The position numbers and the translations under genes are program-made. From the NCBI GenBank assembly GCA_050251055.1, contig JBFWNL010000006.1, positions 64,001-128,000 of the forward strand: a stretch of 64,000 nucleotides of DNA. Direction: 5' to 3'. The stretch is from Bacteriovoracia bacterium. GTDB taxonomy: Bacteria; Bdellovibrionota; UBA1018; JBFWNL01. The notes under the pieces are model-generated. The model searched no databases. It had not been told where the DNA came from and saw only the letters and a list, made by a program, of their open reading frames with translations. Below, one piece after another: positions 24,408 through 28,123 of the stretch (positions are counted from its first letter, which is position 1; each line of letters begins with the position of its first letter).

Positions 24408-25913
24408 ATGCGTATGTTTCAACTTCCAAGGATGGCGCTCGTGCTGGCGGCGATGTTGGTCGCGCCGGCCGCGCTCGCTAACGGTTTCTATAAACCCGGC
24501 GAAGTGATCGTTAAGTACAAGAACAACATCGTGCGCACGAATGCCGTGATGACCGAAATGTATAATGACGTCGGCATTCAGAGCGTGAAGTATTTCAACG
24601 GCATGATGAGCGACTTCGAGCAACTCATCTTAAAGCCAGGCGTCTCCGTGCAAGACGCGGTGAAGAGCCTGGAGCAAACTGGCTTGGTCGAATACGCCCA
24701 GCCGAACTACCTTCTTTTTACCCCCGAAGTGCAAAGCCAGCTGTTGAAAGCCATTCAGCAAGCTAAGAAGAAACAAGAAGCTCCGCCTTGCATCATTCCC
24801 GGCATTCCGTTCCCTCCTGGTTGTGAAGATGGTGGCGGCGGAGGCGGTGGTGATGTTCCTTGCATCATTCCGGGTATCCCATTCCCTCCCGGCTGCGTTG
24901 ACGGCGGCGACGGCGGTGGTGGTGGCGGAGGCAATCCTCCCGCTGAACGCCCGAAGGTAGAAAATCCTCCGGCCGAAGGCAGCCCGGTGGCCGACCCTGA
25001 CAACGCTAAGGCGTGGGGTTTGGAAAAGATTCAAGCGACCTCGGCTTGGAAAGAATTCCCCGGTGACCGCAAGTTCATCGTGGCCGTGATCGATACCGGT
25101 ATCGACTATAACCATAAGGACTTGTCCTTGAACGTGTGGAGAAATCCGAGCCCGACCAACAACGACGTGGTTGGTTTCGACTTCATTCACAATGACGGCC
25201 TCCCGTACGACGACCAAGGTCACGGTACCCACTGCTCGGGTTCTATCGGTGCGGTCGGGGAGAACGGTTTCGGTATCTCGGGCGTGTCCCAGAAGGTGTC
25301 GATCATGGGCTTGAAGTTCCTGTCCTCCTCGGGCCAGGGCTCCACGGCCGATGCCATCAAGGCCATCGACTACGCGATTGCCAAGGGTGCCCGCGTGCTC
25401 TCCAACAGCTGGGGTAGCATTGGCGCCGATCCGGATAACAATGTCCTCGAAGAAGCGATCAACCGCGCGGAAAAAGCCGGCGTGCTCTTCGTGGCGGCGG
25501 CCGGTAACGGCAACCAGTTCGGCATGGGTCAGGACAACGACTCCAGTGCTCAGCGCAGCTATCCCGCTTCCTTCACGACCCCGAACATTATTTCGGTGGC
25601 CGCGACGGACAAGAACGACGGGCTGGCTTCGTTCTCGAACTACGGGAAGAAGTCCGTGCACCTCGGCGCTCCGGGCGTAGGCGTATACAGCGCCGCTCCG
25701 GGCAGCAAGTACGCCACCCACGACGGTACGTCGATGGCGTGTCCGCATGTGGCGGGCGCGGCGGCCTTGCTCTGGTCGAAGCACCCCGACTGGGATTACA
25801 AGAAAGTCAAAGAAGTACTCATAAAGACGACCGATCCGGTGGCGAGCTTGGCAAACAAGTCCGTGTCCGGCGGGCGACTGAATATCCTGAAGGCTATCAG
25901 TTTCAAGGAGTGA
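24408..25913 (+). CDS. Secreted S8 subtilisin-like serine protease
   Basis: Signal peptide and propeptide; VIDTG, HGTH, AAGN, GTSMACPHVAG. Confidence 0.95.
   Translation: MRMFQLPRMALVLAAMLVAPAALANGFYKPGEVIVKYKNNIVRTNAVMTEMYNDVGIQSVKYFNGMMSDFEQLILKPGVSVQDAVKSLEQTGLVEYAQPNYLLFTPEVQSQLLKAIQQAKKKQEAPPCIIPGIPFPPGCEDGGGGGGGDVPCIIPGIPFPPGCVDGGDGGGGGGGNPPAERPKVENPPAEGSPVADPDNAKAWGLEKIQATSAWKEFPGDRKFIVAVIDTGIDYNHKDLSLNVWRNPSPTNNDVVGFDFIHNDGLPYDDQGHGTHCSGSIGAVGENGFGISGVSQKVSIMGLKFLSSSGQGSTADAIKAIDYAIAKGARVLSNSWGSIGADPDNNVLEEAINRAEKAGVLFVAAAGNGNQFGMGQDNDSSAQRSYPASFTTPNIISVAATDKNDGLASFSNYGKKSVHLGAPGVGVYSAAPGSKYATHDGTSMACPHVAGAAALLWSKHPDWDYKKVKEVLIKTTDPVASLANKSVSGGRLNILKAISFKE
24786..24896 (+). repeat. 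Intragenic tandem repeat of PCIIPGIPFPPGC (2 copies) with Gly linkers
   Basis: Copies at 24786-24824 and 24858-24896 encode identical peptides and differ at 7 synonymous codons. Confidence 0.9.
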
Positions 25914-25942
25914 TCCTTCAGGCCAAGGAACTAGGCTAAGTG

Positions 25943-25978
25943 GAAGGGGGAAGCCGCATCCGTGCAGCTTCCCCCTTC
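25943..25978. terminator. Long GC-rich hairpin between the convergent subtilase and dksA units
   Basis: GAAGGGGGAAGC...GCTTCCCCCTTC inverted repeat; on the minus strand it extends to 16 bp around a CGGA loop. Confidence 0.75.
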
Positions 25979-26175
25979 TCGTTTTCGTGCTACCACGACA
26001 CTGACTGCTCGCCGCTGCCTGAACCGGGACCTATCCATGGTGGGTTCAAGTGGGCGATCGGCCATCCTTGGCCAGTACTACGAGTCGGGCACCCCATCCT
26101 TGGTGTCCCCCCATTGAGCCCCGCGACCCCTCGCGTGACCCAAACCCTAATTGCCCCCTAACAAAATCATTGAAC
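25943..26175 (-). ncRNA. Candidate CsrB/RsmZ-like CsrA-binding RNA (sRNA or dksA 3' UTR)
   Basis: Four hairpin-loop motifs on the minus strand: CAAGGATG (26095-26102), CAAGGATG (26063-26070), CATGGATA (26032-26039), CACGGATG (25957-25964); ends uncertain. Confidence 0.55.
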
Positions 26176-26179
26176 TGAC

Positions 26180-26593
26180 TTAAGCGATCCGCAGATTGAT
26201 CTTCTTGCCGATGCTCTTGTGTTTGTGACCGTCGGCATGCACCTGCTCGCGCCGTTCCTGATCTTCCTTGCAGTTCAGGCACAGCGTGGTGGTCGGCCGC
26301 GCTTCCAAGCGTTTAAACTCGATGTCCTCTTCGCAATCCTGGCACAATCCGAACTTGCCCATCCGGATGCGGTTCAGGGCTTCGTCGATCTTCTTGATGA
26401 ACAAAGCTTCCCGGTTGCGCAACCGGATGCGCATGGATTGTTCCAGATCGGAAGAAGTCAGGTCGACTTCATCTTTTAGATCTTCCGTGTGGACCTGGAA
26501 GTTTGCGTCCAGGATTTCCTGCGTGTACAAAAGATCCTTCTTTTGTTTCTCGAAATGATGCTTGAACTTCTCTATCGCGTGAGCGTGAAGCAT
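26180..26593 (-). CDS. dksA: DksA/TraR family transcription factor, copy 1 (tip DEVDLT)
   Basis: RE..I.KI..AL.RI..G.FG.C..C.EDI...RL.ARP...LC..CK zinc finger; AAGGAG SD 7 nt before ATG 26593. Confidence 0.92.
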   Translation of the reverse strand: MLHAHAIEKFKHHFEKQKKDLLYTQEILDANFQVHTEDLKDEVDLTSSDLEQSMRIRLRNREALFIKKIDEALNRIRMGKFGLCQDCEEDIEFKRLEARPTTTLCLNCKEDQERREQVHADGHKHKSIGKKINLRIA

Positions 26594-26627
26594 AGATGTA
26601 CTCCTTCTTCCCCAGGGCAAGCTGGGC

Positions 26628-26670
26628 GACACATCCCGTGTCTCCGCCGGTGACACAGATCCCTCGTGTC
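26628..26670 (-). promoter_or_regulatory. Two repeated GACAC-stem hairpins with GGA loops in the dksA copy 1 leader
   Basis: GACACGAGGGATCTGTGTC (26652-26670) and GACACGGGATGTGTC (26628-26642) on the minus strand. Confidence 0.6.
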
Positions 26671-26722
26671 TTGGCTTGTTGACTTCAGTTGTTTAATGGA
26701 CCGATGGAACGAAAAGAACCGA

Positions 26723-26797
26723 CTAGCGTCGCGTAGCCCAACGGGCTTGCGCGGTTAGTGGTAGGAAACGACGTGGTTGTTGGTCTGAATAACGCAT
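26723..26797 (-). CDS. Candidate leader peptide/uORF MRYSDQQPRRFLPLTAQARWATRR (24 aa)
   Basis: AAGGGGGT SD-like motif before ATG 26797; TAG at 26723-26725; 3' half overlaps a GC hairpin. Confidence 0.4.
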   Translation of the reverse strand: MRYSDQQPRRFLPLTAQARWATRR

Positions 26798-26854
26798 ACT
26801 GACCCCCTTGGAAGGTTGGTGACTCCCCGGTCAACCTTCACGGAAGTAAGATAG

Positions 26855-26871
26855 TGCGAGAGACATGCCAA
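26855..26871 (-). promoter_or_regulatory. Sigma54 (-24/-12) promoter candidate
   Basis: TTGGCATG-TCTC-TCGCA with GG-N10-GC spacing, close to consensus TGGCACG-N4-TTGCW; A/T tract just upstream. Confidence 0.6.
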
Positions 26872-27105
26872 AGGTAGTTACAAAAAAAAACCAAGGAATT
26901 TCAAGGAACGACTGGAAATCATGCCCTAAAACACGCTCTGGACGGGCATTTTCGACGCCACTTTCGGAGGAAAAATGACGAATTTTTTACCACCAGGGCC
27001 AGAGTGAAACTGAAATGCGACAAATTGCGGCGCCGTCCCGGCCGAAGGAGGTCCGAGCTCATTCGGAGAAGAGGCATTCTGCTCCGGTAGCACGGGACGC
27101 AGGTA

Positions 27106-27516
27106 CTATTTGGTGGCCTTCGAGAATGTCTCGCCCAAGCTCTTGTGGCGTTGACCGGCCGCGCTCATGATCTCCATGCGCTCTTCCTCTTCCTTGCAGG
27201 AAACGCAAAGAGTAGCGGTGGGGCGGGCCTGGAGACGGCGGAACTCGATGTCTTCGCCGCAGGACTCACACTCGCCGAAGGTGCCTTCGTCGATTCGGCG
27301 GAGAGCTTCGTCGACTTTCTTGATGTAAAGGGTTTCACGGTTGCGCAGACGCATGCGCATGGATTGCTCGACGTCGGTCGTGGCCTGGTCGAGTTCGTCC
27401 AGACGGTCGTCCGTGTTTACGTTGAAATCATCGCGGATCACGCGATCGTTGTAGAGGAGCTCGCTGCGTTGGGTTTCAAAAATGCGTTGGAACTTCTTGA
27501 GCGTTACTTTGTTCAT
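27106..27516 (-). CDS. dksA: DksA/TraR family transcription factor, copy 2 (tip DELDQA)
   Basis: DxxDxA tip and CxxC...CxxC zinc finger; clearly paralogous to copy 1. Confidence 0.93.
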   Translation of the reverse strand: MNKVTLKKFQRIFETQRSELLYNDRVIRDDFNVNTDDRLDELDQATTDVEQSMRMRLRNRETLYIKKVDEALRRIDEGTFGECESCGEDIEFRRLQARPTATLCVSCKEEEERMEIMSAAGQRHKSLGETFSKATK

Positions 27517-27538
27517 CGTATCCCCCTAATTTCCGTGG

Positions 27539-28123
27539 CTATGTTCTCAAATCACGAATCACTAACTCGCTTACGGCCTGCAAGGTTTCCATCACGCCCA
27601 CGCCTCGACTGGCGATCGCCTCGAAGTGGGGACGTTTCGCGGCGTTAAAGGTGGCTTCCATTTCTTGCACGGAAACCACGCCCTTCACGTCGCGCTTGTT
27701 ATATTGGAAAACCACGGGCAGCCGGTTGATGTCATAACCGTGCCGCTCGAGGCTTTTCTCCAGCAGTTCGTAACTTTCGATATTGGCGCTCATGCGCTCT
27801 TCCTGGCTGTCGGCGACGAAGACGAGGCCGTCGATCCCTTTGAGGATGAAGTCGCGCGCGGATTCGTAAAACGTCTGGCCAGGGATAGAAAAAATGTGGA
27901 AGCGGGTCTCGAAGCCATTCATGACCTCGCCCACGGAAAGGGGCAAGAAATCGAAGAACAGCGTGCGCTCGTTCTCGGTGCTGAGCGAGGTGAGCTTGCC
28001 ATGCTGTTTCGAGTCGGTGTGGTCGTAGATATACTGGACGTTCGTCGTCTTGCCACTGAGGCCGGGACCACAGTAGGCGATCTTCAAAATCAGCTGCTTG
28101 GAGGCGTGGTTGACGAAGCTCAC
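27539..28123 (-). CDS. mglA: MglA-family small Ras-like GTPase
   Basis: KI.Y.GPGLSGKTTN, RTLFFDFLP, PGQ, L.G.DG.VFVADSQ, QYNKRD. Confidence 0.9.
   Translation of the reverse strand: MSFVNHASKQLILKIAYCGPGLSGKTTNVQYIYDHTDSKQHGKLTSLSTENERTLFFDFLPLSVGEVMNGFETRFHIFSIPGQTFYESARDFILKGIDGLVFVADSQEERMSANIESYELLEKSLERHGYDINRLPVVFQYNKRDVKGVVSVQEMEATFNAAKRPHFEAIASRGVGVMETLQAVSELVIRDLRT

Follow-up and report, generated by a model that had tools for sequence, protein, structure and literature searches.

A window of 64,000 nucleotides (nt) from a Bacteriovoracia bacterium (GenBank assembly GCA_050251055.1; 3.77 Mb in 21 contigs, with the window on contig 6) was analysed around a pair of dksA genes on its minus strand; all coordinates refer to this window unless a contig is given. 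The upstream gene (27516-27106), termed A-type here, is followed after a gap of 512 nt by a second, B-type paralogue (26593-26180) encoding a protein of 137 amino acids, and a trailer of 240 nt then leads towards the end of a convergent subtilase gene at 25913. The gap contains a sigma-54 type promoter and a leader with a putative small upstream open reading frame (ORF), and the trailer contains hairpins with GGA in their loops. A sequence-only reading of the window had listed these elements, from the promoter to a terminal stem, in order on one strand and had interpreted them as one integrated module; each of them was found in its place on the minus strand. Comparison with related loci indicates that a conserved module is real: the sigma-54 type promoter, a DksA paralogue with a variant tip and a strand-specific array of GGA hairpins travel together. 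The module may link two global control systems, DksA and CsrA, on one RNA.

The DksA paralogue and its promoter

The B-type protein was characterized using Pfam and sequence alignment. It matches zf-dskA_traR (PF01258) with 48 bits (cut-off 24.9) and DksA_N (PF21157) with 33.5 bits (cut-off 27), contains a C4 zinc finger and finds PDB entries 4ijj (1.6e-16) and 1tjl (1.8e-14) as its structural matches. In an ungapped alignment residue T46 corresponds to A76 of E. coli DksA (1tjl). The tip, given as DxxDxT in the sequence-only reading, indeed reads DEVDLT with Thr at the Ala76 position, and the DxxDxA tip motif of canonical DksA is not intact in this protein. Among the 120 best database homologues the residue aligned to Ala76 is Thr in 85, Ser in 17, Ala in 13, Cys in four and Met in one. 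The DxxDxA motif is described as essential for DksA function and as a mark of DksA-like function, and the exchange A82T in DksA of R. sphaeroides (RSP2654) is reported to lower the inhibition of rrnB P1 from 70-75% to 10-25% (PMC4010833). Taking T46 at the position of A76 together with this effect, the B type can be identified from its alignment as a natural variant at a functionally critical tip residue.

The DksA genes at 30 loci from 40 related genomes were aligned and separate into two types. A-type proteins, including the product of the upstream gene at this locus, have the tip DE(V/L/I)DQA; in B-type proteins DxxD is followed by a hydrophobic residue and then by Thr, Ser or Cys. Of 151 genomes sampled from the phylum, 21 encode proteins of the A/B family (E <= 1e-45), this genome included, and all 21 belong to the order of the window except one, which is of the same class. 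The named homologues of the B-type protein come from metagenome bins of Bdellovibrionota, Bdellovibrionales or Oligoflexia, the closest with 65% identity. A search for related loci in a set of genome contigs gave only two distant DksA genes, and the protein atlas gave only generic DksA clusters.

A third DksA-like class with the tip DxxDLA was seen among the metagenome loci (L117-L158; loci are given coded labels with the prefix L); its genes lack the sigma-54 motif, and the GGA hairpins of its trailers favour neither strand. The genome studied here contains a third DksA-like gene, at 15747-16106 of contig C15.

The promoter of the B-type gene (TGGCATGTCTCTCGCA, 26870-26855, minus strand) was identified from its sequence and reads TGGCATG-N4-TCGCA, with GG at -24 and GC at -12; rpoN is present in the genome (219.5 bits). 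The start predicted from this motif lies at about 26844 and agrees with the transcript start near 26844 that had been expected earlier. A relaxed sigma-54 pattern has 53 matches in the genome, where base composition predicts about 60 (our own arithmetic); taken alone, the motif is at chance level. The clear sigma-54 promoters of the genome have the form TGGCAC-N5-TTGCT, with TTGCT in place of TCGCA.

The pattern TGGCA-N6-T.GC. was used to scan the 700 nt upstream of related genes. The motif was found on the sense strand at 16 of the first 17 B-type loci and on the antisense strand at none. With five B-type loci added from other families, which gives 22 loci in nine families of the order, it precedes 21 of the 22 genes and is never antisense; 20 of these 21 fit the strict TGGCA, one (L073) has CGGCA, and the locus without the motif is L010. 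None of 20 A-type genes has it. Replication was carried out on metagenomes (79 loci), with genes classed by the aligned tip residue and de-duplicated from 88 rows to 83. Here the motif precedes 18 of the 25 genes that have a tip residue other than Ala and at least 600 nt of upstream sequence, with three more at -927 to -978, and none of the 36 genes with Ala at the tip. The promoter is also the sole part of the present leader that aligns with those of relatives (blastn, 24-33 nt, 82-95% identity).

No enhancer-binding protein was recognized by eye near the gene among ORFs of at least 110 amino acids at six loci; no family search was run. In genus g11 (L017, L018, L019, L020, L025, L026 and L028) a recurrent candidate activator site, CGGTGC(A/G)-N4-5-(T)GACAC, was seen by eye some 100-250 nt ahead of the promoter. 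Elsewhere in the genome other sigma-54 type motifs were noted at C8:166743, C9:5731, C5:164182, C1:23289 and C3:341688, and the genes just downstream of them encode Hsp20, OsmC, a hemerythrin-domain protein, an Fe/Mn superoxide dismutase and a GH43 glycosidase; many further motifs precede proteins with a signal-peptide-like start, as judged by eye. To go by these neighbours, sigma-54 may drive a regulon of stress or stationary-phase type in this organism.

Leader and trailer of the predicted RNA

If transcribed from the predicted start, the RNA would begin with a 5'-proximal hairpin (26839-26811, minus strand as for all features of the leader and trailer), which was found by hairpin scan and folding and has the inner stem TGAC/GTCA and the loop CGGGGA. 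It is comparable to a 5'-terminal hairpin at the equivalent place in eight loci of genus g11, six of which have the loop CAGGA(U/A)G on stems that differ. The putative upstream ORF of 24 amino acids (MRYSDQQPRRFLPLTAQARWATRR, 26797-26723), taken from the list of ORFs, follows with a Shine-Dalgarno-like AAGGGGG (26809-26803) 5 nt before its ATG. Two further hairpins from the scan, gacacg-AGGGAUC-uguguc (26670-26652) and gacac-GGGAU-guguc (26642-26628), form a direct repeat, and the Shine-Dalgarno sequence of the paralogue, AAGGAG (26606-26601), located 7 nt before the ATG at 26593, itself contains GGA. This leader has the layout of CsrA-repressed leaders of the hag/flaA type, namely upstream GGA hairpins together with GGA in the Shine-Dalgarno sequence.

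Leaders of about 260-630 nt, the present one included, contain a small ORF soon after the promoter with a Shine-Dalgarno-like stretch ahead of it, and most leaders under about 250 nt are without such an ORF. The other 14 loci with a small ORF are L005, L006, L007, L009, L011, L032, L087, L089, L090, L093, L103, L105, L108 and L109. Together the 15 ORFs are rich in Trp (7.5%, 54 of 722 residues), Arg and Ala and have 2.4% Asp plus Glu; some contain 7-11 Trp in about 50 residues, and the putative 24-residue peptide of the present locus is the shortest, with one Trp. An origin of the Trp-richness as a by-product of GGA motifs was considered and rejected because only 13 of the 54 Trp codons are followed by A. 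A database search with the small ORF of L006 gave no homologue; compared with that of L091 over 237 nt, it has five synonymous and nine non-synonymous codon differences.

In the trailer, hairpin 1 (26109-26087, GGA at 26099) has the loop AAGGAUGG and hairpin 2 (26074-26059, GGA at 26067) reads uggcca-AGGA-uggccg, both being found by scan and folding. Hairpin 3 (26048-26021, GGA at 26036), with the apical loop AUGGAUA on a bulged stem, is present in the minimum-energy and centroid structures from RNAfold; it was missed by the four-pair scan because it has only three apical pairs. The terminal hairpin (25978-25943), found by scan, folding and repeat analysis, has arms of 16 base pairs and the loop CGGA. 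The sequence-only reading had counted four GGA hairpins plus a terminal stem. Four looped GGA are present, but the fourth sits in the loop of the terminal hairpin, so that the array consists of three hairpins and the terminal one. The trailer folds better than shuffled sequences (z = -3.65, none of 200 shuffles as stable). The 10-mer CCAAGGATGG, which lies in hairpin 1, occurs twice 32 nt apart and has 13 copies in 7.5 Mb when both strands are counted. Hairpins with GGA loops also recur as terminal hairpins in the trailers of relatives.

On the plus strand the terminal hairpin, 27 nt past the subtilase stop codon, is followed by a T-rich run, and the hairpin probably also serves as the terminator of that gene. 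Neither the word CAAGGATG nor its relatives are enriched genome-wide, and a genome search for GGCC-xGGAx-GGCC gave 51 matches, mostly in apparent coding regions, and was uninformative.

GGA hairpins were counted at related loci as stems of at least four pairs closing a loop of 4-8 nt that contains GGA, in trailers taken as the 260 nt after the stop codon. The first 17 B-type trailers contain 70 on the sense strand and 13 on the antisense strand, compared with 30.9 +/- 5.2 in 200 dinucleotide shuffles, of which the highest reached 44. For all 22 B-type trailers the counts are 88 sense and 13 antisense, the sense strand being ahead in 20 of them, and for the A-type trailers they are 27 and 27 over 20 loci. 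In the metagenome set, trailers of genes with a tip residue other than Ala contain 88 sense and 25 antisense hairpins (sense higher in 23 loci and lower in three), and the two classes with Ala at the tip have 27/21 and 25/38. The commonest loop word is AGGAU, and in 45 of 78 hairpins the base after GGA is U. The related loci are kin and not independent, so that these totals overstate the statistics; nevertheless, the strand-biased pattern holds family by family and in the second data set.

The trailers of seven species in genus g11 share a consensus fold of four hairpins, each with a GGA loop, and compensatory changes were found in 19 of 34 pairs. A covariance model built from this alignment (R1) matched the trailer of an eighth species (L008, 2.9e-14) and two loci of other families (L006, 0.0018; L005, 0.017); a match in L084 lies inside coding sequence and was taken as spurious. 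No Csr/Rsm family of Rfam matched positions 25000-28000 of the window at E up to 10, or the loci of 20 relatives at E up to 0.1.

The position of the hairpins bears on whether the trailer might be a separate small-RNA gene with its own promoter, which merely lies downstream of the paralogue and is not part of one module. The same question arose for RsmW (PMC4950607). At the present locus no sigma-70-like promoter was found in 25500-27700 and no terminator-like site between the stop codon and the hairpins; in most loci the first GGA hairpin lies about 17-80 nt past the stop codon, and adjacency and orientation are kept in all 22 genome loci of the nine families. These observations argue against a separate gene, which we consider improbable. 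A reading of the leader and trailer as repeat elements was likewise tried, and was rejected because both are single-copy in the genome.

Several results weigh against the overall explanation that is favoured below. The present leader folds no more stably than shuffled sequences (z = +0.8), and 19 leaders together contain 29 sense and 24 antisense GGA hairpins (shuffles 17.4 +/- 4.1), which is a weak strand bias. The present trailer has three hairpins by the scan against a shuffle mean of 2.06, which is not significant by count; loose GGA hairpins occur genome-wide at 5.2 per kb per strand, and neither loose nor strict genome-wide scans singled out the locus. Model R1 did not match the trailer at E up to 10, and the locus therefore resembles the others in architecture and not in alignable sequence. 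The strand bias is reversed at two genome loci (L006 and L011) and at three metagenome loci. The terminal hairpin has no U-run on the dksA strand and could be merely the subtilase terminator. Three to seven GGA hairpins per trailer are few sites for a sponge. csrA is general in the order, also in genomes where no B-type gene was found, and its co-occurrence therefore does not discriminate. Finally, the sequencing runs that match positions 25900-27000 are two DNA runs of one landfill-metagenome study, possibly the one from which the assembly comes, with no RNA run among them.

With the own-genome statistics for promoter pattern, hairpin density and trailer count all at chance level, the locus could be read as fortuitous: the hairpins and the sigma-54 motif would be chance occurrences, the terminal stem would be the terminator of the subtilase gene, and the paralogue would be transcribed by read-through from the upstream dksA. 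The T-run on the plus strand, the merely weak terminator-like site after the upstream dksA and the failure of R1 on this trailer would all suit such a reading. It is nevertheless highly improbable in our view: the promoter aligns with the promoters of relatives, the layout recurs in two independent locus sets and is absent from the A-type controls, and the fold of the trailer and its duplicated 10-mer speak against chance. As a unit, the module that had been proposed from the sequence holds in its anatomy and in its conservation across at least nine families of the order, and the layout recurs around B-type paralogues of relatives among the genome loci and in the metagenome set; conservation of the GGA hairpins is borne out for the trailers and is weak for the leaders.

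Other genes near the locus are dnaX, recR and a gene for an MglA-like small GTPase, all on the minus strand and identified by sequence and Pfam. The subtilase gene (24408-25913, plus strand), which is convergent with the dksA pair, encodes a duplicated internal stretch (PCIIPGIPFPPGC) between the prodomain and the catalytic domain, with a Gly run after each copy. A subtilase gene is also a neighbour of the B-type dksA at locus L032.

CsrA and the proposed mechanism

The genome contains six flagellin genes and a single csrA, which adjoins fliW. The encoded CsrA aligns without gaps with E. coli CsrA, and among solved structures its closest relative is 5dmb. Of 41 genomes of the order, 40 contain csrA, and the one without it is 64% complete. 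In bacteria with FliW, the ancestral targets of CsrA are the leaders of flagellin genes. In the present genome these leaders contain GGA-loop hairpins, followed in several cases by a hairpin that holds the Shine-Dalgarno sequence; one of the hairpins so followed, uggccg-AGGAU-uggccg, is nearly identical to trailer hairpin 2. The CsrA of B. bacteriovorus represses a hag leader with a GGA hairpin (PMC13443453), and A(N)GGA in a loop is given as the rule for CsrA sites (PMC13443453, PMC4894983). The loops of the module fit this rule; the link to CsrA is one of resemblance.

Flagellin leaders with the CsrA-type layout were noted at C4:157806-157860, C4:159.1k and C4:160.4k. Two other clusters of at least two neat GGA-loop hairpins, at C8:95221 and C4:169990-170189 (both on the minus strand), might be further CsrA targets.

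The best overall explanation, which we hold with moderate confidence, is that the locus is one conserved transcription unit in an order of uncultured Bdellovibrionota; it comprises four proposals of differing strength. Firstly, the sigma-54 promoter very probably drives the second DksA paralogue with Thr at the Ala76 position, the RNA carrying a small basic upstream ORF first in some lineages, the present one included. Secondly, the A/N-GGA-U loops in the leader, and chiefly those in the trailer together with the terminal loop, are probably sites for the single FliW-type CsrA. Thirdly, and more tentatively, CsrA bound at the two leader hairpins and at the GGA of the Shine-Dalgarno sequence would repress translation of the paralogue, as at flagellin leaders, and the pairs of trailer sites 32 nt apart would hold more CsrA dimers, so that the RNA would perhaps be target and sink at once; the sink could be either the whole mRNA or a processed 3' fragment. 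Fourthly, by analogy with A82T of R. sphaeroides, one may speculate that the paralogue binds the secondary channel of RNA polymerase without the canonical inhibition. Binding and titration of CsrA and co-transcription of the parts of the module are thus inferred from sequence, and a function of the RNA as a sponge, or as the threshold or feedback switch with a life-cycle role that the sequence-only reading had put forward, as well as an antagonism of the B-type protein towards canonical DksA, is speculative.

The trailer could instead bind CsrA or another factor in cis only and sequester no meaningful amount of CsrA. It would then set the stability of the mRNA, the formation of its 3' end or its translation, for instance by bringing leader and trailer together or by shielding the 3' end. 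Besides the small number of hairpins, the GGA in the loop of the terminal hairpin itself would fit such a role, as would the linkage to B-type genes, which is strict in the 22 genome loci and survives an inversion of gene order in genus g11. On the other side, sigma-54 promoters can be strongly induced, which would favour titration. In systems of this kind FliW is already a dedicated antagonist of CsrA (PMC7652899), which again suits an action in cis; yet the flaA mRNA of C. jejuni is reported to titrate CsrA in a FliW-bearing organism with just two GGA loops (PMC4894983). An action in cis alone is in our estimate unlikely.

Joined into one, these proposals would describe a sigma-54-induced RNA that fuses three global regulators, in which the A76T-type DksA may compete with canonical DksA for the secondary channel of RNA polymerase and the trailer would be, apart from the flagellin mRNA itself, the first RNA found to antagonize a FliW-type CsrA. 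We regard this joint reading as possible, though on the whole somewhat unlikely. If true, it would tie enhancer-binding-protein signalling to flagellar and translational control and to stringent-type transcription, and the Trp- and Arg-rich leader ORF present in many lineages might add a sensing step.

Antagonism of CsrA by RNA is described as characteristic of Gammaproteobacteria, other lineages being thought to rely on FliW (PMC7652899). A conserved array of CsrA-type hairpins on the mRNA of a regulator is a concrete candidate for such an antagonist outside the Gammaproteobacteria. A natural variant at the very tip residue whose mutation disables canonical DksA could in turn reveal the role of secondary-channel paralogues, and the link to sigma-54, along with the motifs of this type ahead of stress genes, gives a hint of how a probably predatory lineage organizes its non-growing state. 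The basis for this significance is comparative sequence evidence from uncultured organisms.

Comparison with known systems

The B-type protein resembles canonical DksA (that of E. coli, RSP2654 of R. sphaeroides, and DksA1 and DksA2 of P. aeruginosa) in having a coiled coil and a C4 zinc finger, in its alignment to 1tjl and 4ijj, and in keeping both Asp residues of the tip. It differs in Thr at the Ala76 position, which is the same change as in the A82T variant of RSP2654 (PMC4010833), and in the residue before this Thr, which is hydrophobic (Leu or Met) and not Gln or Arg.

No paper describing this module, and none describing RNA partners of CsrA in this lineage, was found in the literature searched, which did not cover supplementary files. 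The claim of the sequence-only reading that no equivalent had been described is nevertheless too strong, as three precedents exist for parts of the arrangement: the flaA mRNA of C. jejuni (PMC4894983), RsmW of P. aeruginosa (PMC4950607) and the Csr-stringent circuit of E. coli (PMC7652899). More generally, the sponges CsrB/C and RsmX/Y/Z/W share with the present trailer several GGA in loops, four of them in this case.

RsmW is an RsmA-binding RNA derived from a 3' untranslated region, that of PA4570 (PMC4950607). Like the present trailer it is a GGA-hairpin RNA that directly follows the gene of a small protein, from which no terminator separates it. According to the same source, it probably arises by co-transcription and processing, and it binds a CsrA-family protein. 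The two differ in that RsmW belongs to another phylum and has no sequence or Rfam relation to the trailer described here, in that its upstream gene encodes a possible RsmA-like protein and not a DksA paralogue (PMC4950607), and in that the RsmW system has neither a sigma-54 promoter nor a FliW partner. Moreover, binding was measured for RsmW, whereas for the present trailer it is predicted.

The flaA mRNA of C. jejuni acts as a target of CsrA and also as its sponge, in an organism with a FliW-type CsrA and no known sponge small RNAs (PMC4894983). It resembles the role proposed here in being repressed by CsrA and titrating it at the same time. There, two loops in the 5' leader of a flagellin mRNA of very high abundance provide the sites, whereas the putative sites described here lie mostly in the 3' trailer of the mRNA of a regulator.

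In E. coli, CsrA represses dksA and relA post-transcriptionally and ppGpp/DksA activates csrB/C, so that Csr and the stringent response are already wired together there (PMC7652899). That circuit runs through separate genes and RNAs; in the present case putative CsrA sites and a DksA paralogue lie on one predicted RNA, behind a sigma-54 type promoter and with a variant DksA tip. Set against these precedents, the novelty lies in joining the parts physically on a single predicted RNA, in the sigma-54 type promoter, in the variant tip and in the lineage.

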